Positions 49,799 through 64,000 of a stretch of 64,000 bases of DNA are shown piece by piece. The stretch is from the NCBI GenBank assembly GCA_016208745.1, contig JACQXN010000020.1, positions 9,062 through 73,061 of the forward strand, in the 5' to 3' direction. The notes beneath the pieces were generated by a model, which did not search any database, was not told the origin of the DNA, and worked only from the letters and a program-made list of their open reading frames with translations. This stretch comes from Candidatus Portnoybacteria bacterium (GTDB taxonomy: Bacteria; Patescibacteriota; Minisyncoccia; Portnoybacterales; GWB1-42-6). The position numbers and the translations under genes are program-made. The first letter of the stretch is position 1. Each line of letters begins with the position of its first letter.

Positions 49799-50842
49799 AT
49801 GAGAATTTCTATTCTGATTCCTTGCCACAACGAAGAGCGGTCAATAGAAAGATGCGTCAAATCGTGTTTGGAGCAGACGAGAAAACCCGATGAGATTATC
49901 GTTGTGAACGACGGCAGCACCGATAAAACCGCCCAGATTCTGGCGGGTTTTGGCGACCAAATAAAAGTGGCTAATATTGAAAAGGCGACCGGCAATAAAA
50001 GCTATGCCCAGGAATTTGGGTTGCAATTTATAACCGGCGACATATTTATTGCCACAGACGGGGACACTTTTCTAGACAAAGATTTTGTCAAAACGATTGA
50101 GGAAGATTTTCTTGCCGAGCCCAAGCTGGCGGCAGTTGGTGGCTATGTCAGAAGTTTAAAGTATAATTGGTTGACCGCCTGTCGGGAAATGGATTATATC
50201 CTTGGGCAGGATTTATATAAAGTGGCCCAGGCAAGCATTGATTTCCTTTTTGTTATTCCCGGATGCGCCGGCGCTTTTAAGACGGATATTTTCAGACAAT
50301 ATATTAAATTTGATCACGACACCCTAACCGAAGATTTGGATTTTACATACAAGCTTCATCTTAATTATTTCAAGATTAAATATAACAAAAAGGCGATTTG
50401 CTATACGCAAGACCCCTTTACGCTTGGAGCCTATATTAATCAGATGAGGCGCTGGTTTGGCGGCGGCTGGCAGAATTTGATTAAGAACTTTCGGATTGCT
50501 AACCGGCCGGCCAACGCGCTTGAGCTTTCTTTAATGTATATTGAGGGGCTCATCTTTTCTTCCTGCCTCTTTATTTTCCCTTTGGTTAATATCCTCTTTT
50601 TTGAGCGGTTTATGAGCGCCTATTGCGTTTTTGTGCTTATGCTGGGTCTTTACTGCTCAATTAAAAGAAAAAGAATTGATCTTCTGCTTTTCTCCCCGCT
50701 TTATCTTGTTTTGGTTTTTATAAATTCATGGGTGTTTTTAGAGCAGTTTGTTAAAGAAGTTGTCTTGGGGCGAAAAAATCTGGATTGGTTTAAGCCGGAG
50801 AGATTTAAAAACGAGGAAATGAATCTAGCGCAGAAAATTTAA
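49799..50842 (+). CDS. Processive GT2 glycosyltransferase (PgaC/IcaA/NodC-like)
   Basis: NDGSTD, DGD, TED, QMRRW (D,D,D,QxxRW) and C-terminal TMs. Confidence 0.88.
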   Translation: MRISILIPCHNEERSIERCVKSCLEQTRKPDEIIVVNDGSTDKTAQILAGFGDQIKVANIEKATGNKSYAQEFGLQFITGDIFIATDGDTFLDKDFVKTIEEDFLAEPKLAAVGGYVRSLKYNWLTACREMDYILGQDLYKVAQASIDFLFVIPGCAGAFKTDIFRQYIKFDHDTLTEDLDFTYKLHLNYFKIKYNKKAICYTQDPFTLGAYINQMRRWFGGGWQNLIKNFRIANRPANALELSLMYIEGLIFSSCLFIFPLVNILFFERFMSAYCVFVLMLGLYCSIKRKRIDLLLFSPLYLVLVFINSWVFLEQFVKEVVLGRKNLDWFKPERFKNEEMNLAQKI

Positions 50843-50861
50843 TTTTAAAGGGCAAACTTAT

Positions 50862-51347
50862 ATGCTTCCAAACGGATTATCGCTTATCGTGCATTTACTG
50901 ATTTTATTTTTAGTCTTTCTTAAAAGAACGATTGATTTGGCTATTCAAAAATTAGGATGGTATATTTTAAGATTTAAAATAAGTTTCTGGTTTAGAAAAA
51001 AATTGATTGTTTTTTTAATTGGCCAGCCGGGGAATATATTGTCCAGAAAAATCCTTTCTTATGCGATAGTGCTGTTTGTTTTTTCCGCTATTTCTTCTTT
51101 GATGATAATTTCAATGTGGCCGCGCTTAAGCACAGATTCAAACATAGAGCTTGTTGGGAGCGTATTAAAAAATAATTTTGCGGTTGCTGATGAAAGGGCC
51201 GCGGAAGTCTTTATCAAAGATGATTTTGATGTGGAGTATATCAATGTTTTGCCTTCATCTGATGACATTTCTTATCCGGAGCAAGACGTTTTTGTAGCGC
51301 TCCTGCCGGTTTCTGAAGATATCAAAGAGCCGATTAATAATAATTAA
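50862..51347 (+). CDS. Hypothetical membrane protein
   Basis: Hydrophobic N-half, acidic C-half; in operon position. Confidence 0.5.
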   Translation: MLPNGLSLIVHLLILFLVFLKRTIDLAIQKLGWYILRFKISFWFRKKLIVFLIGQPGNILSRKILSYAIVLFVFSAISSLMIISMWPRLSTDSNIELVGSVLKNNFAVADERAAEVFIKDDFDVEYINVLPSSDDISYPEQDVFVALLPVSEDIKEPINNN

Positions 51348-51393
51348 ACCAACGCTCAAGCCCGGCGCTAGACGCTAATCAACTGACCAAAAA

Positions 51394-52749
51394 ATGAAAA
51401 AAATTTATTTAATTCCAATTTATATCCTCTGTGTAAGCCTAATCTTTTCGCCGCTTAATTTCTTGTTGGCGGCCGATAAAGTTGATTTGGCCGGATACGC
51501 AATGAGCCGTTTGAGCGGTCTGTCTTTTGGCTTGTTTAATCAAGACCAAAATCAGTCAGAAGAACTAATCTTGTTAGACGGGGATATCTCTGAAGAATTT
51601 TCCTTGCTTTCGCCCGGCGCGCCATTTGGCCCCAATCTTATTAAAAATCCCTCGCTGGAGACAGCCGGCCTTTTAAGCGGTTTGCCGGAGTTTTGGTCCC
51701 ACGGAAGTTGGGACAAAAATAATCCAGTTCCAAGCTACCCGGTTTCTGGATTTGACGAAGAAAGAGCGGTTAGGATAGATATTGATAAATACGTTGGCGG
51801 AGACAGCAAATGGTATTTTGAAGACGTGGAGATTGCCGCTGGCAAGCATTATCTTTTTTCGGATTCATTTAAGTCTACAATTCCCAGCGTTTTAACTGCC
51901 AGATTCCTTTTAGCCGATAATACTTATCGATATTTTGATGTTGCTAATTTGCCTGCTTCATTTATTTGGCAGACAGCCTCGCAAATGATAACCGCGCCTT
52001 ATAACGCAAAATCGCTGACAATTTTCCATTCAATAAGAGGTAATGGTTCGTTGACTACTGATAACTTTTCTTTAAGAGAAATACCGGTCAGCGGCGGATT
52101 TTCTCAAGGTTTTGTTTCTTTGGATTTTGATGATGGTTGGGCGCTTACCTATAAAAACGCTTTGCCGATTTTAAACAAAGCGGGTCTAAAAAGCACGCAG
52201 AGCATAATCAGCGGTAGCATAAAAGATTGGCATTATGTTAATAAATCTCAGATTTTAGATATGCAAAATTCCGGACACGAAATTGCTTCGCATACAAAAA
52301 CGCACGCAGACTTAACTCGATTTTCAGCGAGCCGGGTGAAAGATGAAGTAGCCGGCTCAAAGAAAGCTTTATTATCGCTTGGCGTGGAGGCAATCAATTC
52401 ATTTGTGTATGCTCACGGAAAATACAATAACCAAGCAGAGGAAGCCGTAAAGGATGCTGGCTTCATAAATGCAAGAACCATTGATATTGGTTACAATACA
52501 AAAACATCCAATCCATATTTATTGAAAAGTCAGGTAATCGCATTAAACACTAGTTTTGATGAAGTAAAATTCTGGATTGACAGAGCGATTGCCGATAAAA
52601 CTTGGGTGATTTTGGTTTTTCATCAGATAGATTATAGCGGTCAAACATATAGCGCTACCCCAGAAATGTTGCAGCAAATTGTTGATTATCTAGTTTTACA
52701 GAATGTTTCGGTTTTGACCAATTCGCAAGGCGCGGCATTGCTTGAATAG
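51394..52749 (+). CDS. Secreted CBM-like + CE4 polysaccharide deacetylase
   Basis: Signal peptide; NLIKNPSLE domain; FDDG, SHTKTH, LVFH. Confidence 0.9.
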   Translation: MKKIYLIPIYILCVSLIFSPLNFLLAADKVDLAGYAMSRLSGLSFGLFNQDQNQSEELILLDGDISEEFSLLSPGAPFGPNLIKNPSLETAGLLSGLPEFWSHGSWDKNNPVPSYPVSGFDEERAVRIDIDKYVGGDSKWYFEDVEIAAGKHYLFSDSFKSTIPSVLTARFLLADNTYRYFDVANLPASFIWQTASQMITAPYNAKSLTIFHSIRGNGSLTTDNFSLREIPVSGGFSQGFVSLDFDDGWALTYKNALPILNKAGLKSTQSIISGSIKDWHYVNKSQILDMQNSGHEIASHTKTHADLTRFSASRVKDEVAGSKKALLSLGVEAINSFVYAHGKYNNQAEEAVKDAGFINARTIDIGYNTKTSNPYLLKSQVIALNTSFDEVKFWIDRAIADKTWVILVFHQIDYSGQTYSATPEMLQQIVDYLVLQNVSVLTNSQGAALLE

Positions 52750-52779
52750 TTTTTGAATTGAATCATAGGCTCTGTTATT

Positions 52780-52849
52780 TGTCATTCCCGCGAAAGCGGG
52801 AATCCAGGCTCTTTTTTGAATCTAGATTCCCGCTTTCGCGGGAATGACA
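52780..52849. repeat. Family B palindrome (cleanest copy)
   Basis: TGTCATTCCCGCGAAAGCGGGAATCC...GATTCCCGCTTTCGCGGGAATGACA. Confidence 0.92.
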
Positions 52850-52923
52850 AGACTGAGTATTATGTAATTCAAGCAGGAAGTTTTTTAAAAACAAAATAAA
52901 ACAAAAACATAAGGAGGCAAAAG

Positions 52924-54162
52924 ATGAAAGCAAGATTGAACGGTGTTTTTTTGGTGGCTTGTGCGGTTTTTTTCTTATTAACCTTAACCAGCGCGAGTTT
53001 CGCGTATGAACTGCCAAAGATGGTCGGCATTACCTGTGATGACGGGCAAGCCGATTCTTTGGAAAGAATGCTGTCTGTCACGATCCCTCTTGGGCTCAAG
53101 GTTGACCTTTTTTTGGTTACTGATTTCCTTGATGAAGGGGATTGGTCTATTGACTGGGCCAGGGCGAAAGAGCTCCAAACTCTTTATCCCGGCCTAGTTA
53201 AAATCAATAGTCACTCAAGGACTCATCCCTACTTTACGTCGCTTACCAATGCGCGATTGATTGATGAGACGCGCGGCTCAAAGCTTCAGTTCTCGGCTCA
53301 CGGCATTAATACAGATGACATGGGGATCGCCACGCCGTATGGCGACTTCAACCTTAAGGTCTTGTCTTTTGTGGCAAGATATTATCCTTGGCATCGGGCG
53401 GCTTGGGATTATGATGGTGATGGCGTGATCAACAAATGGCCTTTAAATGATTGTCAGTTGGAGATCTTTGAGCCGACACCGAATATGCCGGGCGAAGAAG
53501 TGATTGCCCGGGTCCAAGAAGACATAGCGCAAGGTGGACTTCCATTGCTTTTATTCCACGAATTTACGCCGGCTGGCGTTGTGCCGGGAGATTGGCAATA
53601 TCCAATTGAGGAATTCAAAAAAATTGTAAATTGGATTGCCGCAAACAGTGACACGATTAAATCTGTCACGATTTCGGAGGCACTGCATCTAACCGACGCC
53701 CCAAATTTGGTGAAAAACTATTCTTTTACTAACCGGAATGTTAATGGTTGGGCGAAGAATTGGTCGCGGAGCGGCGCGGGAGTTACGATCAATACGGCTC
53801 ACCAGGGCAATTTTCCTGAATTTACAAACAGCTTGCGAATTGTCGGTGGTTCTGTGGAGCGCAAAGCCTGGAACGATCAGGTGCCAGTGGATGAGGGCTC
53901 CGAATACATTATCAAGATGTATCAGAGCTGCCAGAATTGGGTCGCGGGCGGTTGGTGCGTCTGGGTTGATGAATTTAACTTAGACGGATATTATATTGGC
54001 GGCCAACGGTTAGGAGGCAACTACTGGAACTTCGTTGGCTGGCGGTATTATCAATATCAGCCTTCACCCGGAACCGCCAAAGCTTCTATCCAACCTTATG
54101 TAGAGGCGGGCAGTCGGTTGACTCTGTTCGTTGATTCAGTGGAGATGAGGAAGCTGCCATAG
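52924..54162 (+). CDS. Secreted CE4 polysaccharide deacetylase + CBM-like domain
   Basis: Signal peptide; CDDG, SHSRTH, ATPYG, LLFH; NLVKNYSF domain. Confidence 0.88.
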   Translation: MKARLNGVFLVACAVFFLLTLTSASFAYELPKMVGITCDDGQADSLERMLSVTIPLGLKVDLFLVTDFLDEGDWSIDWARAKELQTLYPGLVKINSHSRTHPYFTSLTNARLIDETRGSKLQFSAHGINTDDMGIATPYGDFNLKVLSFVARYYPWHRAAWDYDGDGVINKWPLNDCQLEIFEPTPNMPGEEVIARVQEDIAQGGLPLLLFHEFTPAGVVPGDWQYPIEEFKKIVNWIAANSDTIKSVTISEALHLTDAPNLVKNYSFTNRNVNGWAKNWSRSGAGVTINTAHQGNFPEFTNSLRIVGGSVERKAWNDQVPVDEGSEYIIKMYQSCQNWVAGGWCVWVDEFNLDGYYIGGQRLGGNYWNFVGWRYYQYQPSPGTAKASIQPYVEAGSRLTLFVDSVEMRKLP

Positions 54163-54170
54163 ATAATTAT

Positions 54171-54293
54171 TTCCCCCTTTATAAAAGGGGGATTCAGGGG
54201 GATTTTTAAAATCCCTCCCAGCCTCCTTTTTTCAAGGGAGGAGTAAGAAAACAAATACACCCGACGCAAAATAAAGCGTCGGGTTTTTAATTT
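54171..54293. repeat. Family A repeat plus terminator (ACCCGACGC/GCGTCGGGT-T5)
   Basis: Same block recurs at 55635-55720. Confidence 0.85.
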
Positions 54294-54397
54294 TAGCAGC
54301 ACAAAAAACTTGACAACATTATTGTTGTGTGTTAGATTGGTTGATTCAAAGAGTGAGGAGAAATTCCTTAAAAACAAAACAAAAACGGAGGTAAAAA

Positions 54398-55621
54398 ATG
54401 GAAACAAGAAAGGTAGTAAGTATTTGGATGATTATTTTAGCGGTAACTTTTATGGTAACCGCGAATTCGGCCGCTTATGAGCCGCCGGCCAAGTGTACAA
54501 TCTTTTTTGATGATGGTCAGAGGTCAATTTATGACATCGCCTTGCCTATAATGGCGGCGAGAAACCTTAAGGCCGTAATTTGCCCTAGGGCCGATTGGAT
54601 GGGTTTGGGAGAAGGCTGGGTGATGAACTGGGAAGAGGTCTCGACTCTGAAGACGCAATATAAGTGGGAAGTTACCAGCCATGGAATAGACCATCCAGAT
54701 TTCACCACATTGTCAGACCCGGATCTGGAATGGCAGATGATAGGTTCCAAGGATGCATTTGCCGACCACAATATTATTGTTAGGGGCATCGCAACGCCTT
54801 TTGGTGCTTACAATGGCAAGGTTTTGTCGGCTATCGCCAGAAACTATTTTTGGCATCGCACAGCAGACGCAGGGGTGGATTCTTGGCCCTATAATGACTA
54901 TATGCTTAAGGTTATAGAGCCAAAAAGGGACACGCCGCCTGAAGATGTAATTACGCAACTTCAGGACGCCTTTGCTCAAGGCCAATGGCCTAAGCTTTTG
55001 TTTCACAATCTCGTGGATGGGGTGCCGTTGGATTATCAATACAACTCGGCGGACTTCGCCCAGATTATGGACTTTATCCAAGCAGAGAGAGACCGGGGAG
55101 CCGTTAAGGTTGTGACGGTTACGCAAGGTTTGAGGTTGCCTGCTGGCAACAACTTGGTGCCAAACAGCAGCTTTGAGAATTTAAAACCCAACGGTTGGCC
55201 AAAAAATTGGTGGCTGAATGATGGGGCTGATTCAAGCAAAGTCTTCTTGGACAACGCTAATCACGGTAATTTTCCAAAGCCGAAAAACTCCATCAAGATT
55301 ATTGGTGATGCTCTGCCGCAAGGCATCCAATCAGCCAAAATCGCAGTCAGCAGTAATTCTGAGTATATCGTCAAGATGTTTCAGAATGTTCAAGATCTTG
55401 TTGCTGGTGGTTGGAGCGTCCATGTAGACGAATTTGACTCATCTGGCGCTTATATCGGGACTCGGTGCCTTGGCAACAACTGGGATAATTTCTTTGACTG
55501 CCGGTATTATGAATATCAGCCATCTGTCAAAGCCGTGAAAACGGCTATCATAATTTCAACTTGGGAAAACAGCGAGTTGACGCTACGTGTTGACTCGGTT
55601 GAATTCCGGAGATTAAATTAG
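54398..55621 (+). CDS. Secreted CE4 deacetylase + CBM-like domain, paralog of 52924-54162
   Basis: FDDG, SHGIDH, GIATPFG, LLFH; shared HGNFP, VAGGW...VDEF, VDSVE. Confidence 0.88.
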   Translation: METRKVVSIWMIILAVTFMVTANSAAYEPPAKCTIFFDDGQRSIYDIALPIMAARNLKAVICPRADWMGLGEGWVMNWEEVSTLKTQYKWEVTSHGIDHPDFTTLSDPDLEWQMIGSKDAFADHNIIVRGIATPFGAYNGKVLSAIARNYFWHRTADAGVDSWPYNDYMLKVIEPKRDTPPEDVITQLQDAFAQGQWPKLLFHNLVDGVPLDYQYNSADFAQIMDFIQAERDRGAVKVVTVTQGLRLPAGNNLVPNSSFENLKPNGWPKNWWLNDGADSSKVFLDNANHGNFPKPKNSIKIIGDALPQGIQSAKIAVSSNSEYIVKMFQNVQDLVAGGWSVHVDEFDSSGAYIGTRCLGNNWDNFFDCRYYEYQPSVKAVKTAIIISTWENSELTLRVDSVEFRRLN

Positions 55622-55743: not shown

Positions 55744-55796
55744 TTATCCACAATAAACTTTTGACGTCTTGACAGCATTTTACTATTTGCTAAACT
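55744..55796 (+). promoter_or_regulatory. DnaA-box consensus plus sigma70 promoter
   Basis: TTATCCACA 55744-55752; TTGACA-16-TAAACT. Confidence 0.55.
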
Positions 55797-55867
55797 AATA
55801 TAACGCCTTAAAAAGGCGCTAAAAAACCATAGATTAAAATTAGAAAACAAAATTAGAATTTAGATTT

Positions 55868-56137
55868 AAACCACCTACGGAGGGTAGCGAGAATCGTAAT
55901 GCAAGAGCCCGATAAGCTCACACATTACATACTGATTGACTAGAAGGGTGGTTTTTTTATTTTCTCGTCAAAAATTTCAAGTGTTAACGCAGAAATTTTT
56001 GTAACGAGAAAATAACCCCGCATTTATTCTTACCAAAGGGCAAGAAGACCAGTAAACGAAGGCGCAGGTCTCAAGGCCGGAGCCGTTTCGCGCAATAATA
56101 CAGAAATAGATAAACTTGGCTGGAATAAGTGCGGGGT
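55868..56137 (+). ncRNA. Conserved structured leader, copy 1
   Basis: Three stems shared, with compensatory changes, with 62948-63202. Confidence 0.72.
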
Positions 56138-56321
56138 TGAAAACAGAATTTATTGTCCGCATACCCGCCGTCGCCAAGGCTTTGGCGGGCAGGCGCGGGA
56201 GATTCTTCTCCGTCCGCAAATGCGGACGGAGAAGAATGACAGAAGAAAGTTAATCCAAATTTTAACATCCGATTGTTAATCTGGCGCATAGGGGGCGAAG
56301 TTCTATAAATAATTTTTTTAT

Positions 56322-56394
56322 AAATCCCTCCCAACCTCCCCTAAAGGGGAGGAGTAAAAAATTCCCCTCCTTTAGGAGGGGTTAGGGGAGATTT
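56322..56394. repeat. Family A repeat
   Basis: TTCCCCTCCTTTAGGAGGGGTTAGGGGAGATTT identical at 61489-61521. Confidence 0.85.
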
Positions 56395-56548
56395 AGTAAA
56401 AGGTCGACATTGCCTGCTTTCCGCTTTTAGCGGTTTTCTGCCAAAAGCAGGGCAGTGAACTAGCACATTTTAAAAATAAAGGCAGAAAACAGATATTAAC
56501 GAATTGCGGATTAACGAATTTTAACGCGTTAGTTCGTTAATTCATAAA

Positions 56549-57412
56549 ATGATACAAAAATCTATGAAAAAAGTTTTCGTTACCTTAACAGTTTTATCGT
56601 TAATGGTATTGACGGCGGCTCCTGCTTTGGCTGGTCATCGTCCTTCAAGACACCAAATGCCAGCTAATGACAGCGATATCACAATTAATATTGATAATGA
56701 GGCGACTGTTACCAACATCGTTTCTGTCGGAGCTTACACCGGCGGCAATACCTCTAAAGGCGATGACGGCGGCGACGGCGGCGACAGCGGCGAAGCAGAA
56801 GTTGAAGGAGCTAAAGGCACTGCCACTTCCGGCGACGGCGGCGACGGCGGCGACGGCGGCAATGGCGGCACAATCACCTCTGGTGATGCAGATGCGAGCG
56901 CCTATATTGCTAACGTAGTTAATACCAATTTGACTTCAGTTGATGCTTGCGGTTGCGAAGAAGGAGAAGAGGAAGATGGCTGTGGATGTGAAGATCCTTG
57001 CGGCTGTCAGTCTCGCTGCGGCGGCTCTCAACAAGGGGATGACTGTGGTTGCATTGATGACATCAAAGTTGACATAGAAAACAAAAAGACTGATGTTAAC
57101 AACAATGCAGGAGTTATGGCCGACACAGGTTTAAATGAATCCAAAGGCGATGACGGCGGCAATGGCGGCGACAGCGGCGAAGCAGAAGTTGAAGACCAAG
57201 ACAAAGACAGAGACAACAGATGGCATCGCGGCGGCTGCAATACTTGCGGCAGTGATTCAGAAGACAGCGAATGCTGCCCTGAAGCCACTTCAGGTGATGC
57301 AGGCGATGGCGGCGACGGCGGCAATGGTGGTGAAATCACCAGCGGCGCAGCTGCGGCTACAGCCAAAGTATTTAATCTGGTTAACACCACTGTTACCAGA
57401 GTTCGCAGATAA
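56549..57412 (+). CDS. Secreted Gly/Asp/Cys-rich protein with two TGxN...TSGxA repeats
   Basis: Signal peptide (APALA), (GGD)n tracts, CGC clusters, internal DNA duplication 56756/57143; start may be ATG 56564. Confidence 0.8.
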   Translation: MIQKSMKKVFVTLTVLSLMVLTAAPALAGHRPSRHQMPANDSDITINIDNEATVTNIVSVGAYTGGNTSKGDDGGDGGDSGEAEVEGAKGTATSGDGGDGGDGGNGGTITSGDADASAYIANVVNTNLTSVDACGCEEGEEEDGCGCEDPCGCQSRCGGSQQGDDCGCIDDIKVDIENKKTDVNNNAGVMADTGLNESKGDDGGNGGDSGEAEVEDQDKDRDNRWHRGGCNTCGSDSEDSECCPEATSGDAGDGGDGGNGGEITSGAAAATAKVFNLVNTTVTRVRR

Positions 57413-57478
57413 CTATTTTTTGCGAAACGAGCAGGAGAAGCTTTCGGGCTTCTCCTCTCGGATAAGCTCTTAATTTAT

Positions 57479-57563
57479 TTCCCCCTTTTTAAAGGGGGAT
57501 AAAGGGGGATTTAAAAAGACAAATCTAAATCCACCCCTCCCCTCCTTTAAAAAGGAGGGGAGG
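57479..57563. repeat. Family A repeat
   Basis: TCCCCCTTT-TT-AAAGGGGGA...CCCTCCTTTAAAAAGGAGGGG. Confidence 0.85.
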
Positions 57564-57737
57564 AATATCGATTGATAGCTTATGCGAGGGAAAAATGCCA
57601 GAATTTCTAATTACTCCGCCCAAGGCGGATCCGCCTCTGGCGGATAATTCAATCCCAATGCCCAATGTCAAGATTTAAAAATTAGACATTTGGGAACTAA
57701 ATATTTTATTGGAAATTAGGAATTATTTAAGAAATTT

Positions 57738-58346
57738 ATGGAGGTAAAGACGAGAAAAATTTTAAAAGTTATTTTACTTTTTTCATTAGTTTTGCCTCTG
57801 TCAGCCCAAGCGGCGTTGTTTGACGATTTTGTTAGCGGGATTGAAGATTGGGTTTCTGAACAAACAGGCAGTCAAACAAATAGTTCGGGCAATGTCCAGA
57901 TAAAAAACGAAGTAAAAGTTGAAGCTTCAACCGGCGGAAATTCTGTTGGTTCAGGCGGGGAAATTAAACAGGGCGAACAAAAAACCGAAATTGAAATAAA
58001 AAACATTATCAACGGACAGGAAATAGAGCCGGTTAATATTAATTCTTCAAGCAGCAAGGCAAAAGTGGAAATAAAAATAGAGGCCAATGATGGAAAAATT
58101 GAAGTTGAAAGAGAAATTGAAGTTGATTCGGAAAAAAGCGAGCAGAATTACCAGATTAATGCGGATAATCAAAATTCCCAAGATGATGCAAGCTCGCAAG
58201 AGTCTGCTGGCGCAGGCACAGATAGCGGCGTAGAAACGGAAAAGGAAAATATATTGGAAAAAACCGCAACAACAACTTCGGATTTCTTTTCAGCGATTTT
58301 TGAAAGCATAAAATCTTTTTTTGAAAATATATTTAGTATTTTTTAG
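57738..58346 (+). CDS. Secreted protein with one TGGN repeat
   Basis: Signal peptide (AQA); NEVKVEASTGGNS...IKQGE; amphipathic C-terminus. Confidence 0.75.
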   Translation: MEVKTRKILKVILLFSLVLPLSAQAALFDDFVSGIEDWVSEQTGSQTNSSGNVQIKNEVKVEASTGGNSVGSGGEIKQGEQKTEIEIKNIINGQEIEPVNINSSSSKAKVEIKIEANDGKIEVEREIEVDSEKSEQNYQINADNQNSQDDASSQESAGAGTDSGVETEKENILEKTATTTSDFFSAIFESIKSFFENIFSIF

Positions 58347-58377
58347 ATTCACTGAATCATAAAGCGGGCATTTTTTG

Positions 58378-58474
58378 CCTCCCCTCCTCAGATGAGGAGG
58401 GGAATTAAAGGGGTGGTGGTGACCTTAATAATTCAACACCCCACCCTACCCCTCCCCTCATCTGAGGGGAGGGA
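58378..58474. repeat. Family A repeat
   Basis: CCCCTCCTCAGATGAGGAGGGG...CCCTCCCCTCATCTGAGGGGAGGG. Confidence 0.85.
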
Positions 58475-58544
58475 AGACGCCTATTTTATAATTCAATGTT
58501 AAGCCAATATTTTAATCTAACTCCGGAGGGAAGTTATATCGGTT

Positions 58545-61349
58545 ATGAAAGCCAAACAGAGCAGGAGGGGAGATAATTGTTTTTTAACTAATTTAACTCG
58601 GGGAAAACAGAAAAACTTTATTTTAATTCCCTTACTGGTTATCAGTTTGGTGGTTTTTAATTTTCCCGCCATATCGGTTTTAGCCGAAGAAGTCCCGACT
58701 GACGCGCCAGCAGACACAACTTTAAGCCAAGATGCGCCAGCGCCTGCAGAAACTCCTGCGCCAACGGAAAATCCTGCTCCGCCGGAAGATGTGGTTATTG
58801 ACACCGGGGACGCCAATGGCGGCATTGAGGTTGAAAACTCTGTTAACACCAATATCGCCCAGCTTGGCGATCCGGCAGAAAGCCAGACAGACTGGTCAGA
58901 GCTTGAAGGAGAAGTCCAAGGACAGGCTGATGAAGCCGCTCAAACAGAGGCTGAAGAAACCGGTGAAACTGAAACTCAAGAGACCGCAGAAACTTTAGGC
59001 GACAATCCTCCAGCCGAGCCAGAAGAAGAATTGGCTCAAGGCGTTGACAATAGCAATGACGAGGAAAATAATGACGGCCAAAACACACTCGATATTACAA
59101 ATGATAATCAGGCTGATGTTGGAAACGACGTTGTTGGAGTCGGCTCAACCGGCGACAATCAAGCAGAGGGCGAAGCTTGCGACGTTGATATTAATACCGG
59201 CGCTGTCAATTTATACACCTATTTAATAAATATCGTTAACACCAATATTTTTGCCTCTGATTTCTCCCAGTTTTTGTTAAATCTTTTTGAGGGTTTGCAA
59301 GGCGATATTGATTTATCCAGCGAAATTGCTTCTTCGGCAGAAGGATGCCTAGGCGATGATTGCATAGACAATATTAATATCACCAATAATAACAACGGCA
59401 CAACGACCAACGATGTTTTGCTTGACGGCTCAAGCGGGGGAAACACCGCGCAAAGCAATGGCGGATCGGCAACTATTAACACCGGCGATGTTAATGTGGT
59501 GGCCAATGTTTTAAATATCTTAAACTCCAATATCGTTGGCGCAAACTGGACTCAATTTATCATCAATGTTTTTGGCGATTGGATGGGCGATTTGGTTTTG
59601 CCCGGCAAGGACCAGATGCAGGATCAATTTGGCAATAGCGGCTCTGCCTGCTGCGGCGATTTGTCCATTACCAATTCAAATCAAGGCCAGATAATAAATG
59701 ATGTTAGCGTTATTTCAGACACCGGTTTAAACACAACGCAAGGCGATGGCGGCTCAATTAACACCGGCGACGCGCAAGCGGATGTTAATGTTTTCAATAT
59801 CGCCAATACCAATATAACCGGCAATAATTTCTTTTTGATGAAGGTTAATAATTTTGGCGACTGGAACGGCAGTATTTTCAGTCTGCCGCCCGGATTTTTC
59901 ATTAGCCAAGACGGAATGGGCTTTGAAATTATAAACGCTGGTTCAAGCAGCGGCGTGGGAATTTCTGGCAGCGACTTAAATATCACCAACAATAACGCCG
60001 GCGCGATTATAAACAGAGTAATCATCAATGCCTTTACCGGCGGAAACACCGCTCAATCATCAGGCGGCTCTGCTTCAATTAATACCGGCGATGCCCAAGC
60101 GATAGTCAATTTGATGAATATTATGAATACCAATATCGTGGGCAATAATTTCCTTTTGGGCATGGTTAATATTTTTGGCAACTGGCAGGGCAATTTGGCC
60201 TTTGGCCGGCCAGACAACTGGATTGGTTCCTCTGCCGCCACCCTGCCTGATCCGGTCAGCCCGGGCGGCGAAATTGCCTATAACCTGGCCTACACTAACA
60301 AAGGCAATGCCGATGCGAGCAATGTTTTGGTCAAAGCCGGCTTCAATAAGGGGATTGTGGAAATCTTAAATAGCGGCGGCGGCTTTATTGACGAAGCAGC
60401 CGGCGAAATTATCTGGAATGTTGGCGATTTATCAATCGGCGAAACCGGCGCAGTTTCCTATGCTGTCCAGGTTAAAGATGATGTGCAAAATGACGTAAAA
60501 ACAATTGATACCACTTCTTCCATTTCAAGCCTTGAGAGCGACAATAACAGCCAAGACAACACAGACACTCTTTCGGTGGCTCTTTATCGCGGCAGTTCTT
60601 TGGGCGCTTTGGTTGGCGGGCCAAACGAAACTTTGCCGAATATGAAATTAACTCAAGCCAACAATGCTTATGATGGCGCCTGGCAAGGTGGCAGCATTAG
60701 TTTCTCTACCAAGCTTTTTAACGATAGTTCGGGCTCTTCTTATGACACGATTCTTTACAATAACATCCGATCAGTTTCTTCAACCGATATTCTAGACACC
60801 CAGCAATGGAATTTGGGCAAAGTTTTTCCCAATGAAGAGATAACAATTGATTTTGCCATTGTGGTTGGCGAAAATTTGCCGCCGGGCGAGTATCTAAGCT
60901 TTACCCAGGCGGCTGGCAAAGATGCTTCTGGCAACGCCAGCTATTCAACTATTGCTTCAAGCGTATTTAAAGTTGTAGAAGCTCCGGATACTGAAAATGT
61001 CGCGTCAGAAGAGGCAGCCGAGCTGAATGAAGAAGAGAATTCACAAAACAATATTGTGTCGGACATAAAAGATGTGGTTCAGGAAATATTAGCGCCTCTT
61101 AGACCAAAAACCATTAGCGCTTCGGATGAAAATGGGCCAGCAGTTGTTCGCGAAGTTTCAGCTTCAAACGAACAAGGTGGCGTTTTAGGGGATTTGCAAG
61201 AAGAGTCAAATAACAGACGCAGCTTAAATCTTTTTTCAGCGATTGGGTCTTTGGGCTGGTGGGGCTGGCTGATTATATTGGCTATCTTGGCAGCATTCTT
61301 GATTCTTCTGTTTTTGACAAAGAAAAGGAAAAAGGAAGAATCTTATTAG
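58545..61349 (+). CDS. Large surface protein: four TGxN...TGDA repeats, DUF11-like domains, C-terminal TM anchor
   Basis: Signal region; Asn-rich repeats; PGGEIAYNLAYTNKGNADA; WWGWLIIL...KKRKK tail. Confidence 0.82.
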   Translation: MKAKQSRRGDNCFLTNLTRGKQKNFILIPLLVISLVVFNFPAISVLAEEVPTDAPADTTLSQDAPAPAETPAPTENPAPPEDVVIDTGDANGGIEVENSVNTNIAQLGDPAESQTDWSELEGEVQGQADEAAQTEAEETGETETQETAETLGDNPPAEPEEELAQGVDNSNDEENNDGQNTLDITNDNQADVGNDVVGVGSTGDNQAEGEACDVDINTGAVNLYTYLINIVNTNIFASDFSQFLLNLFEGLQGDIDLSSEIASSAEGCLGDDCIDNINITNNNNGTTTNDVLLDGSSGGNTAQSNGGSATINTGDVNVVANVLNILNSNIVGANWTQFIINVFGDWMGDLVLPGKDQMQDQFGNSGSACCGDLSITNSNQGQIINDVSVISDTGLNTTQGDGGSINTGDAQADVNVFNIANTNITGNNFFLMKVNNFGDWNGSIFSLPPGFFISQDGMGFEIINAGSSSGVGISGSDLNITNNNAGAIINRVIINAFTGGNTAQSSGGSASINTGDAQAIVNLMNIMNTNIVGNNFLLGMVNIFGNWQGNLAFGRPDNWIGSSAATLPDPVSPGGEIAYNLAYTNKGNADASNVLVKAGFNKGIVEILNSGGGFIDEAAGEIIWNVGDLSIGETGAVSYAVQVKDDVQNDVKTIDTTSSISSLESDNNSQDNTDTLSVALYRGSSLGALVGGPNETLPNMKLTQANNAYDGAWQGGSISFSTKLFNDSSGSSYDTILYNNIRSVSSTDILDTQQWNLGKVFPNEEITIDFAIVVGENLPPGEYLSFTQAAGKDASGNASYSTIASSVFKVVEAPDTENVASEEAAELNEEENSQNNIVSDIKDVVQEILAPLRPKTISASDENGPAVVREVSASNEQGGVLGDLQEESNNRRSLNLFSAIGSLGWWGWLIILAILAAFLILLFLTKKRKKEESY

Positions 61350-61392
61350 TTTTTTGAGGCTGAGTTTGTCTAATAATAACTTGATTAGCCAC

Positions 61393-61521
61393 AAATCCTC
61401 CCTCGCCTCGCTTAAGCTCCGGCGAAGCGGGCCAGCCCTCCCCCGTATCAAGTACGGGGCAAGCTCTAAAGGGAGGGAGCAGGGATTATTCCCCTCCTTT
61501 AGGAGGGGTTAGGGGAGATTT
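61393..61521. repeat. Family A repeat with two nested GC palindromes
   Basis: TCGCC..GGCGA and CCCCGTA/TACGGGG interrupt the AAATCCTCCC..CCCTC..AAAGGGAGGG frame. Confidence 0.82.
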
Positions 61522-61691
61522 AGATTGGTGTAAGAGTTAATTAATTTCAGGAACCATCGCAGATTACATTATTATTCATTAAACCCTAGGCTATTATTTG
61601 TTTGACAGGATTCCTTGAGGCGGTAAAATGATAAATAAACATCGCTTTTTTTGCAGCGGGCGAGTTTTAATAATTATTAAAACTATAAAAA

Positions 61692-62504
61692 ATGAATAAA
61701 AAATCGCTTCTCAATAATTTAATTGTTTTGCTGGCGGCCTTTGCTTTGCTTTTAAGCCCGGTTTTGGCTAAAAACGACAATGCCATAGAAGTTGATATTC
61801 CAGACCAAGATGGGATATATGACGTGCCCGGCCATCAGGAACTTAAACTAAGAGTTATTGTCCACAAAGAGAAACCGGCAAAAACCGATCCAGAGGCTTT
61901 GCAATCTTTTGTCTGCACTCTCTCCGATCCTGATTCTCTGTCATTTATTGGCGCAACCGGCTGGTATTTGGCAACAACAACACCTTTCGTTTATACCTTA
62001 AATCCAAGCAGTGTGCCCGCTTCCATTGGCGCCAGCAACTTGCCAAAAATAGCGGAAAATTCATTTAAGGTTTGGACGGATGCGATTGGCAATAAGGTGA
62101 CTATTTCAAGAAACCCGATAAACACTTTAATCGCCAAAAAAGCTCTTGATGGCAAAAATATTATTGCCTGGAACAGATTGTCAAAATCAATTTTAGGCGT
62201 TACCTACACTTGGTATTACACGAGCACCGGTTTAGTAGCGGAGATTGATACCATAATGAATAAAAGCGTTGCTTGGAGCTGGTCTAATCCGACAACCTGG
62301 CCCCTGCCCTATATTTGCGCTGATAAATATTCTTATGACGCGCAGAATATCCTAACTCATGAAATCGGCCATTGGTTTGGCCTGATTGATAGATATGAGA
62401 CTGATTATGCCGCAAACACAATGTATGGTTATGGTTCAAAAATGGAAACAAAGAAGGATACTCTAACTGAAGGCGATATTTTGGGGGTAGAGGCGATTTA
62501 TTAA
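61692..62504 (+). CDS. Secreted matrixin (M10-like) metallopeptidase
   Basis: Signal peptide; HEIGHWFGL zinc motif; TMY Met-turn; promoter TTGACA-16-TAAAAT (61602-61629). Confidence 0.88.
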   Translation: MNKKSLLNNLIVLLAAFALLLSPVLAKNDNAIEVDIPDQDGIYDVPGHQELKLRVIVHKEKPAKTDPEALQSFVCTLSDPDSLSFIGATGWYLATTTPFVYTLNPSSVPASIGASNLPKIAENSFKVWTDAIGNKVTISRNPINTLIAKKALDGKNIIAWNRLSKSILGVTYTWYYTSTGLVAEIDTIMNKSVAWSWSNPTTWPLPYICADKYSYDAQNILTHEIGHWFGLIDRYETDYAANTMYGYGSKMETKKDTLTEGDILGVEAIY

Positions 62505-62527
62505 AACAGAGAAGTATTTATTTCAAA

Positions 62528-62563
62528 AACAGTCCGTTCGTAAAGGCGATCGGGCTGTTTTTT
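62528..62563 (+). terminator. Intrinsic terminator
   Basis: AACAGTCCG...CGGGCTGTTTTTT. Confidence 0.65.
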
Positions 62564-62574
62564 ATGTCTTTTTT

Positions 62575-62743
62575 CCTCCTCTCAGACTTGCCCCGTTCAG
62601 CGGGGTGAAGGAGAGGTAGGGTGGGGTGTTGAAAAGACAAATTTTACAATAATTCCCTCTCCTCAGTTGAGGAGAGGGGAAGGGTGAGGTGATGTTTTCA
62701 AATCAACACCACCCCCAACCCCTCCTCATCTGAGGAGGGGAGG
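62575..62743. repeat. Cluster of three family A hairpins
   Basis: CCCTCTCCTCAGTTGAGGAGAGGG and CCCCTCCTCATCTGAGGAGGGG. Confidence 0.85.
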
Positions 62744-62947
62744 AATCATTTTAGGGTTTTCCACAGATTTCTCCACATTTGGTTCACTTTTCATAAACAG
62801 CGCGATTTTGACGCTGTTTTTTTGTTTGGTTAAACTGATATAACGGGCTGGAAAAAGCGAGATTTTTTTCATCTGAAATTAATCTTTGTTATTTTAGAAT
62901 GCGATTGGGACATGATTATTTTATTTTAATTTTTTCAATTAGTTAAA

Positions 62948-63202
62948 AAACCACCTAATTATCAATAACTATGCTGAGGGAAAAACCCAAAATTGCATTT
63001 ATAGTTAGCTGAAAAGAAAGGGTGGTTTTTATTTGTTTGTCAAAATTTTAGAACTCGCCGCAGCGAGCGATAAAAATTTTATAACAAACAAATAACCCCG
63101 CACTTATTCTTACCAAAGAGCAAGAATGTCAAAGAACAAAGGCGTAGCCGTTTCGTGCGATAAGACGGAAATAAGAATACTTGGCTGGAATAAGTGCGGG
63201 GT
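62948..63202 (+). ncRNA. Conserved structured leader, copy 2
   Basis: See 55868-56137; promoter TTGACG-17-TAAACT at 62808-62836. Confidence 0.72.
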
Positions 63203-63409
63203 AACTCCCGATAAATAATTGCTCTCTCTATCAGAAAGTCCTTGATAGGTGGGGGAAAAGGTCGAAAAGTGGCTTCCCTTGGTTCTGCAGAAACGGAGCT
63301 AAGGCGAGCCACTTTAAGTAAAAAATTAATAAATTAGTCAATTAACGAATTAAAGAATTAACGAATTAAATCCGTTAATCCGTTAATGCGTTAATAAATA
63401 ATAATTAAT

Positions 63410-64000
63410 ATGAAGAAGATTATATTAAGTTTAAGCATTATCGCGGCGGCCGCGGCAGTGGTCATCGGCGTCACGACTTCATTTTTTTCCGACACCGAAA
63501 CTTCCAGCGGCAACACCTTTACCGCTGGCGACATTGATCTCCAGATTGATAATGAAAGTTATGTGACTAATGAAGACGGAATATTGGTTGCGAGCCCTAA
63601 TACGAGCTGGGATTTAGCAGATCTTACAATAGAAAAATTTTTTGATTTTGATGATCTAAAACCCGGCGACATTGGCGAGGATACAATTTCAATTCATATT
63701 GGCTCAAACGACGCATGGGTTTGCGCTGCGGCAAGAATTACCGCAGACGAAGATGTTACGTGTACTGAGCCAGAAGGCGATGACGATTCAAATTGCGCCG
63801 AGTCGGGCGCGGGGCTTGGAGAGTTAGATGAAGAAATAAATTTTGCATTTTGGGTAGACGATGGTGATAACGTGCTTGAGGATAATGAGGTTAGCTCTAT
63901 TTTTCTCGAAGGACCATTAAGCGGAATTGGCGCGCAGGGGCAAATTACCTTGGCGGATTTCGATGAATCGATTCTTCCAGACAAAGGTCCTATTCCGGGC
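63410..64000 (+). CDS. TasA/CalY-like protein with SipW-class signal peptide, 3'-truncated by window edge (absent from ORF track)
   Basis: MKKIILSLSIIAAAAAVVIGVTTSFFSDTETSSGNTFTAGDIDL...LKPGD; open to the window end. Confidence 0.88.
   Translation, partial: MKKIILSLSIIAAAAAVVIGVTTSFFSDTETSSGNTFTAGDIDLQIDNESYVTNEDGILVASPNTSWDLADLTIEKFFDFDDLKPGDIGEDTISIHIGSNDAWVCAAARITADEDVTCTEPEGDDDSNCAESGAGLGELDEEINFAFWVDDGDNVLEDNEVSSIFLEGPLSGIGAQGQITLADFDESILPDKGPIPG

Follow-up and report, generated by a model that had tools for sequence, protein, structure and literature searches.

Background

[quoted passage not shown] The present element lies twice in a 64,000-nucleotide stretch of Candidatus Portnoybacteria DNA (contig JACQXN010000020.1, positions 9,062 to 73,061; hereafter the window, in whose numbering coordinates are given), once in the leader of a gene at 56549 (leader 1) and once in that of a gene at 63410 (leader 2). 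In each leader it consists of two adjoining hairpins, stems 2 and 3, which stand behind a promoter and a further hairpin, stem 1. A first-pass annotation had interpreted stems 1 to 3 as a candidate new regulatory RNA shared by two operons for what it took to be secreted fibre proteins. We find instead that stems 2 and 3 (~180 nt) belong to a palindromic repeat dispersed among the ultra-small Patescibacteria, which is likely to be mobile DNA and not a new riboswitch.

As those sources outline MITEs, the repeat resembles them in being non-coding, multi-copy and intergenic, in its length (~180-240 nt) and long stems, in its position near terminators, in having no link to gene function, and in having both filled and empty sites; it resembles SPRITE, as outlined in PMC3049150, in being tied to terminator-like sequence without a clear target duplication. 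It is unlike MITEs, on the same outline, in that it is built of two adjoining hairpins rather than as one element with terminal inverted repeats, stands in a fixed sense orientation after an existing hairpin and run of U (U-run), and has a cognate transposase that is a candidate only. It is set beside SPRITE, BOX and RUP by description, not by sequence comparison. Repetitive extragenic palindromic (REP) sequences and REPINs, in their general description, are likewise palindromes outside genes that lie close to gene ends and have GC-rich mini-hairpins, but the present repeat is longer and composite, and the Y1 domain (PF01797) of their RAYT transposases has no match in four of five carrier genomes, including the one with 52 matches of the repeat.

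Two further systems bear on the comparison. In the Ssn system (Chenal et al. 2025, PMC11893778) the nucleases, with their NTS/SRM repeats, are encoded by small GIY-YIG genes of a single domain that stand between hairpin repeats. That paper, whose main text mentions neither Patescibacteria nor the candidate phyla radiation (CPR), describes Ssn cleavage, not mobility, as far as we draw on it. The present family is Ssn-like in that GIY-YIG cassettes in relatives share the ends of stem 3, and unlike Ssn in that the degenerate SRM motif, which has 20 matches in the genome, matches neither leader. The likeness to EAR and other processive antiterminators, as PMC8191782 outlines them, lies in a structured RNA before a likely surface or matrix operon and in a terminator-like leader hairpin; the differences are that the stems have no Rfam match, are not conserved with the operon and lie past the terminator. 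Because the test for target duplication failed and inverted ends of the whole element are lacking, the repeat is not filed as a member of MITE, REP or SRM. Neither is it a riboswitch or EAR homologue. Literature outside supplements and most subscription papers yielded nothing on structured leaders in Patescibacteria, on the repeat, on the words AAAGGTCGA and AAAGGTCG that recur below, or on the two gene-linked hairpins.

Results and discussion

Likeness of the two leaders

The ordered layout attributed to the two leaders is present in full, every named motif being found where it had been placed, and blastn aligns the two over 145 columns at 75% (E 1e-23), a resemblance far above chance. Folding z-scores are -5.62 for leader 1 and -6.06 for leader 2, the minimum free energy structure holds all three stems, and the compensatory changes claimed for stem 2 amount to three pairs in its 11-bp base. 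When the leaders are compared segment by segment, likeness is found in the promoter (28/38 identical, z 7.6), in the stem-1 arms, which are identical, in stem 2 (z 6.0), in stem 3 (91/107 identical, z 17.3) and in the hairpin at the tail of the leader (z 4.2), while no likeness above chance is seen in the interior of stem 1 (z -0.2), in the AT-rich spacer on the 5' side (z 1.3) or in the spacer that follows stem 3 (z 0.4). The promoter form TAAACT.ATATAA is exclusive to these two leaders (2/2 genome matches), and together with the colinear z-scores it supports a duplication of the leader. The downstream genes are not homologous, as had been stated; their proteins have only a 14-aa stretch in common (E 0.025).

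Several other components of the layout are generic and have no specificity for the pair. The word AAAGGTCG has 33 copies in the genome, of which 13 are between open reading frames (ORFs) and 11 of those 5' of a same-strand ORF; TCCACA has 198 copies; and heptamer arrays occur at 5-7 genome sites, the type found in leader 1 being present at five, one of them amid ribosomal protein genes. The stem-1 arms, AAACCACC...GGTGGTTT, are of terminator type and occur at nine genome sites, seven of which are short hairpins of 25-29 nt, while in leader 1 they close ~70 nt with a U-run next. Among the additional palindromes of leader 1, the CCCTCC repeat is found at 34 genome sites and two other hairpins at one and two. 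The nonamer TTATCCACA was labelled DnaA-box-like from what we take to be the consensus.

We also observed that AAAGGTCG(A) stands 40-290 nt 5' of many start codons, often those of secreted proteins, in the source genome and in most leaders of homologous operons, and also in the rplJ leader of genome G002. A contig variant (runs X1 and X2, from one study) joins 63218 to 63256 and omits 63219-63255, the intervening letters being unread. DNA contigs of one study also have, in a different context, 24 nt that match the left arm of stem 2, too short a match to be of use.

A dispersed two-hairpin repeat

The build of stems 2 and 3 is shared with relatives, in which a long hairpin, TATTTGTTTGTC...ACAAACAAATA, is followed by CCCCGC...GGGG around a longer interior, which has a conserved core of its own. 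A covariance model (R1) of 20 repeat copies, from which the window copies were excluded, matches copy 1 at 55955-56034 (55.8 bits, E 3e-14) and copy 2 at 63027-63114 (58.9 bits, E 4e-15). A third copy in the source genome (G000; 859 kb in 29 contigs) lies directly 3' of the 16S rRNA gene. R1 has matches in 18 of the 59 genomes of the order, with nine matches in G036, and 52 matches in G289, at least one of which is the reverse reading of another. The expectation that stem 2 would covary is borne out, and copies outside the window covary as well, with 94.6% of cells paired (0/500 shuffles) and double changes in 7 of 14 pairs. Since stem 2 covaries in the non-window copies, the covariation belongs to the repeat itself, and it is expected of a palindromic repeat too.

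The genomic context of the repeat was evaluated at 47 of the 110 matches listed, namely those with E<1e-6 and available DNA, two of which are the window copies. In a mechanical count the next ORF is on the same strand at 18 sites, on the opposite strand at 18 and missing at 11, and most sites start no more than about 10 nt from a hairpin and U-run. Among the 75 flanking ORFs scanned are tsaE, rpsL, rplJ, nusA, PNPase, maf and MgtC, together with a permease and a pilin, and none of the 75 matches Peptidase_M73. In pattern searches, the family pattern has no match in viral contigs, an exact-pattern scan of genome contigs gave 31 matches, most in unrelated taxa without stems, and the junction pattern occurs in 70 of the 401 genomes of the class, many of them likewise without stems. 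A sequence look-up made with one copy of the family gave no match. At three loci of G289 (L081, L082 and L084) the repeat contains nested inserts, including a CCCCGTTAG...CTAACGGGG element within stem 3, and one 46-nt module is found inside both stems.

Comparison at four kinds of equivalent site indicates that the repeat comes and goes. The rplJ leaders within the family contain it in one case of 14, immediately after the leader hairpin and U-run, and the remaining leaders have other repeats or nothing at that spot. The tsaE site is filled in G014 and holds a short remnant only in its congener G008, which has identical flanking genes. A terminator pair beside a pilin gene has the repeat in G004 and none in the congener G013, where the upstream genes are not the same. 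On the 3' side of 16S, the repeat is present at 2 of 30 loci, in G000 (C24:13464-13690, loci L015 and L364) and G013 (C14, L362), in both directly past the 3' arm of the stem predicted for 16S processing; the two copies are near-identical across two genera, the repeat is missing in the congeners of G013, of which G004 has a clean empty site, and a tRNA, not 23S, follows 16S. An origin of the repeat in the rRNA operon was ruled out, just 2 of 30 16S ends carrying a copy. Among 77 loci of the two gene families downstream of the window leaders, R1 finds only the two copies of G000 at E<0.01, leaving 75 of 75 foreign loci without the repeat, and nhmmer searches with the promoter-to-stem-3 region of either copy against 112 homologue loci likewise found it missing.

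Unrelated gene neighbours, together with presence and absence among close relatives, make it likely that the repeat is mobile. Homologues in random orientation or gene context are also the pattern by which, according to the first-pass annotation, a mobile repeat would betray itself. Its proposal of one RNA regulator shared by both operons consequently does not hold for stems 2 and 3, whose gene contexts are random, and survives to the extent that the leaders are related, that they share a predicted attenuator layout which homologous operons also show, that gene 63410 encodes a SipW-type signal peptide and has a SipW-like peptidase gene downstream, and that the tail hairpin of leader 2 is gene-linked.

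The regulatory reading of stems 1 to 3

The leaders belong to no Rfam family, in agreement with the statement that no known riboswitch was recognized. At gathering level the window contains a single tRNA match, and at E<=1 the 11 loci searched, including both copies, give tRNA, rRNA and chance microRNA-type matches. The suggested riboswitch or EAR-type identity finds no match, and homologues of stems 1 to 3 are not consistently 5' of related genes on the same strand. Likenesses to the consensus sequences of T-box, c-di-GMP and c-di-AMP elements were abandoned, Rfam giving them no support.

The leaders of homologous operons, as read by eye, mostly comprise a promoter, a G-rich stretch, a terminator-like hairpin with a U-run, AAAGGTCG and the ATG. 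In the window, transcription would start near 55803 and 62843. Together with its U-run, stem 1 would serve as a leader terminator (attenuator) that requires read-through. Only RNA that has been read through could then fold into stems 2 and 3, passenger hairpins that would alter pausing or RNA stability at most; because they are downstream of the U-run, they could not decide termination there.

Weighing of the alternatives

We consider it probable that the leaders form a pair of related promoter-leader units which likely arose by local duplication, and that stems 2 and 3 are in each a copy of the likely mobile repeat lodged behind a hairpin and U-run. In the simplest history, one leader, comprising the promoter, stem 1, the repeat and the AAAGGTCGA hairpin, would have been duplicated before two surface-protein operons, and further repeats would then have filled the duplicated leaders. 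A number of observations weigh against this account. Stems 2 and 3 have kept 72-85% identity while the spacers lost their likeness, which selection would explain too. The interior of stem 3 in the window pair (GCAAGAA, AGCCGTTTCG) is unlike the family core, and a 19-mer of its right arm has no match in metagenome contigs, so that this variant is known from these two leaders alone. Several same-strand matches of the repeat are in leaders of ribosomal and transcription genes, the count of ORF orientations includes shadow ORFs and some partial matches, and the attenuator layout of the homologous leaders was judged without a control count. With respect to mobility, the flanks of 20 stem-3 ends reveal no constant target duplication, none of the 13 GIY-YIG ORFs inspected in G000 sits within stem-3-type ends, and no Y1 transposase was found in G000, G289, G013 or G009, three being present in G036 (all incomplete metagenome-assembled genomes).

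Some of these observations would suit a history in which an ancestral leader took up the repeat and was then duplicated, and in which stems 2 and 3, with a new interior, were kept in this lineage as an RNA module co-controlling both operons. The strong conservation of stem 3 and the three compensatory pairs of stem 2 beside spacers at chance level, the restriction of the interior variant to the window pair, and the equal placement of both copies after identical stem-1 arms all argue for such a domestication, as does the preference of the family for folding on the sense strand (14/18, with G-U 7 vs A-C 2). We nevertheless regard it as unlikely, since it is drawn from two sequences of one genome, all homologous leaders are without stems 2 and 3, the non-window family covaries equally well, and a subsequent conversion event between the copies, which are 7 kb apart, would yield the same pattern. 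Template switching, moreover, can match the arms of DNA hairpins without selection on RNA. That there was no duplication, and that unrelated leaders assembled from generic parts were struck separately by one local repeat subfamily, is quite improbable: the generic stem-1 arms, AAAGGTCG and heptamers, the unrelated spacers, and the acceptance of many different repeats at the spot behind the leader U-run are what it predicts, but it leaves unexplained a promoter form exclusive to two sites, the likeness of the tail hairpins, and the presence of two of the three copies of the genome within 7 kb of each other in equivalent positions. Least probable, and in our judgement very improbable, is that stems 1 to 3 are a single dedicated riboswitch or EAR-like antitermination RNA of matrix genes. 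The stable fold, the terminator-like stem 1 and the position between a promoter and secreted-protein genes are consistent with it, as is the finding in G000 of a single copy of NusG and of no LoaP/RfaH-type paralogue for the task; the lack of an Rfam match, the location of stems 2 and 3 past the U-run, where they are untranscribed when termination is decided, the unrelated stem-1 interiors, which is where an aptamer would be expected, and the random contexts of the homologues, which are missing in homologous operons, argue against it.

Ends of the repeat and possible routes of mobility

If the repeat is mobile, as we favour, then our guess is that it likely spread via a folded single strand on which a small nuclease acted in trans. 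As RNA, 14 of 18 copies fold better on the sense strand, and as DNA 15 of 18. The left end of the unit blends into the U-run, and stem 3 by itself has terminal inverted repeats, while the unit of stems 2 and 3 does not. By its ends, stem 3 joins a class of CCCC...GGGG inverted repeats of which G000 has 27, mostly ~100 nt in length. The 8-bp ends of stem 3, CCCCGCAC/GTGCGGGG, also bracket ORFs of 86-87 aa with a GIY-YIG domain (PF01541) in units of ~300 bp in relatives (L134 and L168), and with one change they end such a unit at L111; GIY-YIG cassettes bearing identical 8-bp ends are the lead candidate for a putative nuclease. In G000 there are 14 PF01541 matches, one of which is flanked by NTS-like repeats.

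Related arrangements were observed in passing. Three CCCC...GGGG elements of ~110 nt are within tRNA- or tmRNA-like sequence in G000 (C1:22742, C24:23251 and C24:30133), and in G022 (L220:114-997) an rpsC gene lies between perfect 14-bp CCCCGCCG inverted repeats. A homologous SipW-cognate leader (L160/L296, G009:C55) is swollen to more than 2 kb by GIY-YIG cassettes and several CCCC...GGGG elements; it also has two small reverse-strand ORFs that we take to resemble a HicAB-type pair.

A conserved hairpin before gene 63410

The hairpin after AAAGGTCGA in leader 2 (63256-63320), which is conserved and gene-linked, is on comparative grounds a better candidate for a regulator than stems 2 and 3. 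A model of it (R3), built from six leaders that include copy 2, has a single match in each of 10 of the 59 genomes of the order. Four of these matches are new (E 9e-7 to 0.008), each 29-33 nt 5' of an ATG that begins a signal-peptide-like ORF; one of the four ORFs is above the TIGR04088 cut-off, two have no family and one is cut by a contig end. The R3 stem is 99.1% paired, and of its 18 pairs nine vary one-sidedly (mostly G-U) and four two-sidedly, in what are six related sequences. Leader 1 matches R3 weakly (16.6 bits, E 0.13) and one other leader of the 56549 family does so at E 0.014, so a tail hairpin common to both gene families is only hinted at. The block of AAAGGTCGA and hairpin near the start codon is likely a real conserved signal, which would act on translation start or RNA stability.

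Six loci (L171, L172, L188, L205, L207 and L208) have a second type of leader before SipW-cognate genes, in which a GTGTCTT/AAGGCAC hairpin has a GCGGGG loop and CCGC is nearby; loop and CCGC likely form an H-type pseudoknot, with a long hairpin next to it.

A C-rich and a G-rich loop in relatives

In many homologous operons, a hairpin of 70-110 nt with a C-rich loop lies 70-500 nt 5' of the G-rich motif of the leader (L101-L115, L137, L163, L168, L169, L178, L281 and L290), often with a promoter-like site and a U-run. Double changes are found in 18 of 24 pairs of this hairpin and in 4 of 6 pairs of the 5' leader hairpin, whose loop is GGGGAAAC. The two loops themselves covary as two types, TTTCCCC/GGGGAAA vs TTCCTCC/GGAGGAA. 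Loop and downstream target match over at least 8 nt in 11 of the 18 own pairs; for cross pairs this is so in 74 of 162 when the loop type agrees and in 10 of 144 when it differs, counts in which the script chose the wrong C-run in three loci and kin are not independent. The leaders of the carriers have a downstream C-run too, which could form a pseudoknot or an alternative helix. A model of the C-loop hairpin (R2) finds four further hairpins among the homologue loci and, over 151 class genomes, 10 carriers; of four new matches in the class genomes, one is 5' of a 56549 homologue, two are 5' of genes of other kinds and the fourth is an artefact from a tRNA. The hairpin has no Rfam match and was not found in G000 (best E 0.62), where the window leaders contain only complements of 4-6 nt.

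The 6C small RNA, in its general description, is likewise a short hairpin, the C-rich loop of which is unpaired and complementary to G-rich mRNA; in comparison with 6C-like small RNAs, the hairpin of the relatives is encoded beside its putative target, and the G-rich loop is near the transcript 5' end, before the leader terminator. RsaE and RoxS presumably share the same C-rich-loop likeness. An uncatalogued RNA circuit may be imagined for the SipW/TasA-type and Gly/Asp-rich surface-protein operons of Patescibacteria, in which a neighbouring C-loop small RNA opens the G-rich 5' loop of the attenuator leader, a conserved hairpin acts at the start codon, and, in the present genome, the small RNA was lost and the captured repeat became a new module in both leaders; taken as a whole, this scheme is speculative and we think it has a low probability. 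At eight loci (L101, L106, L131, L159, L173, L175, L183 and L186), the words AAGGACA/TGTCC(TT) and TTATCCAC recur 5' of operon promoters and are possible transcription-factor sites.

Genes and features of the window

The product of gene 63410 is above the TIGR04088 cut-off, and the gene is the first in a run of paralogues, with a SipW-like peptidase past the end of the window (TIGR02228 above cut-off, C11:78809). The product of gene 56549 matches no Pfam or NCBIfam family; its relatives are hypothetical clusters in Minisyncoccota, and 12 of the 300 other genomes of the class contain homologues. Directly 5' of this surface-protein island, positions 49799-55621 contain a GT2 glycosyltransferase gene and three polysaccharide deacetylase genes, which are possibly a matrix-polysaccharide locus.

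Table 1. Coordinates of the two leaders and their genes within the window
Feature	Position	Strand	Remark
TTATCCACA, 9-mer	55744..55752	+	26 genome copies; candidate relevance only
Leader 1 promoter, sigma-70-like TTGACA-16-TAAACT (55769-55796) plus AATATAACG	55769..55806	+	
Leader 1 stem 1, arms 55868-55875/55947-55954, U-run after	55868..55958	+	predicted attenuator
Repeat copy 1, stem 2 (55958-56014) and stem 3 (56015-56137)	55955..56137	+	R1 match
Extra palindromes from stem 3 to AAAGGTCGA, including CCCTCC...GGAGG repeat (56318-56396)	56160..56396	unstranded	
Leader 1 AAAAGGTCGA and hairpin	56398..56463	+	weak likeness to conserved leader 2 tail
TAACGAATT/CGTTAA heptamer array, leader 1	56492..56546	unstranded	generic intergenic repeat
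Gene for 287-aa protein, signal-like N-terminus, Gly/Asp-rich repeats	56549..57412	+	no family
Leader 2 promoter, TTGACG-17-TAAACT (62808-62836) plus GATATAACG	62808..62846	+	
Leader 2 stem 1 with U-run, arms 62948-62955/63021-63028	62948..63030	+	predicted attenuator
Repeat copy 2, stem 2 (63030-63094) and stem 3 (63095-63202)	63027..63202	+	R1 match
Small hairpin with GATAGGTGGGGG at end	63219..63255	unstranded	resembles right end, CCCC...GGGG elements, same spot in G009 (L160)
AAAAGGTCGA and conserved hairpin (model R3)	63256..63320	+	single-copy candidate cis-regulatory RNA of SipW-cognate operons
Heptamer array, leader 2	63338..63405	unstranded	generic, 7 genome sites
Start of gene for 564-aa protein, SipW-dependent-type signal peptide, TasA/camelysin-like N-terminus	63410..64000	+	

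Conclusions

The analysis defines an uncatalogued family of two-hairpin repeats with filled and empty sites, and it illustrates a trap for motif discovery, in that a covarying leader RNA of Patescibacteria can be a palindrome, probably mobile, behind a terminator. The interest of the finding rests mostly on the gene-linked hairpins: as candidates, the start-proximal hairpin and, in relatives, the pair of C-rich and G-rich loops would be among the few leads on how reduced, regulator-poor bacteria control what are likely attachment proteins.

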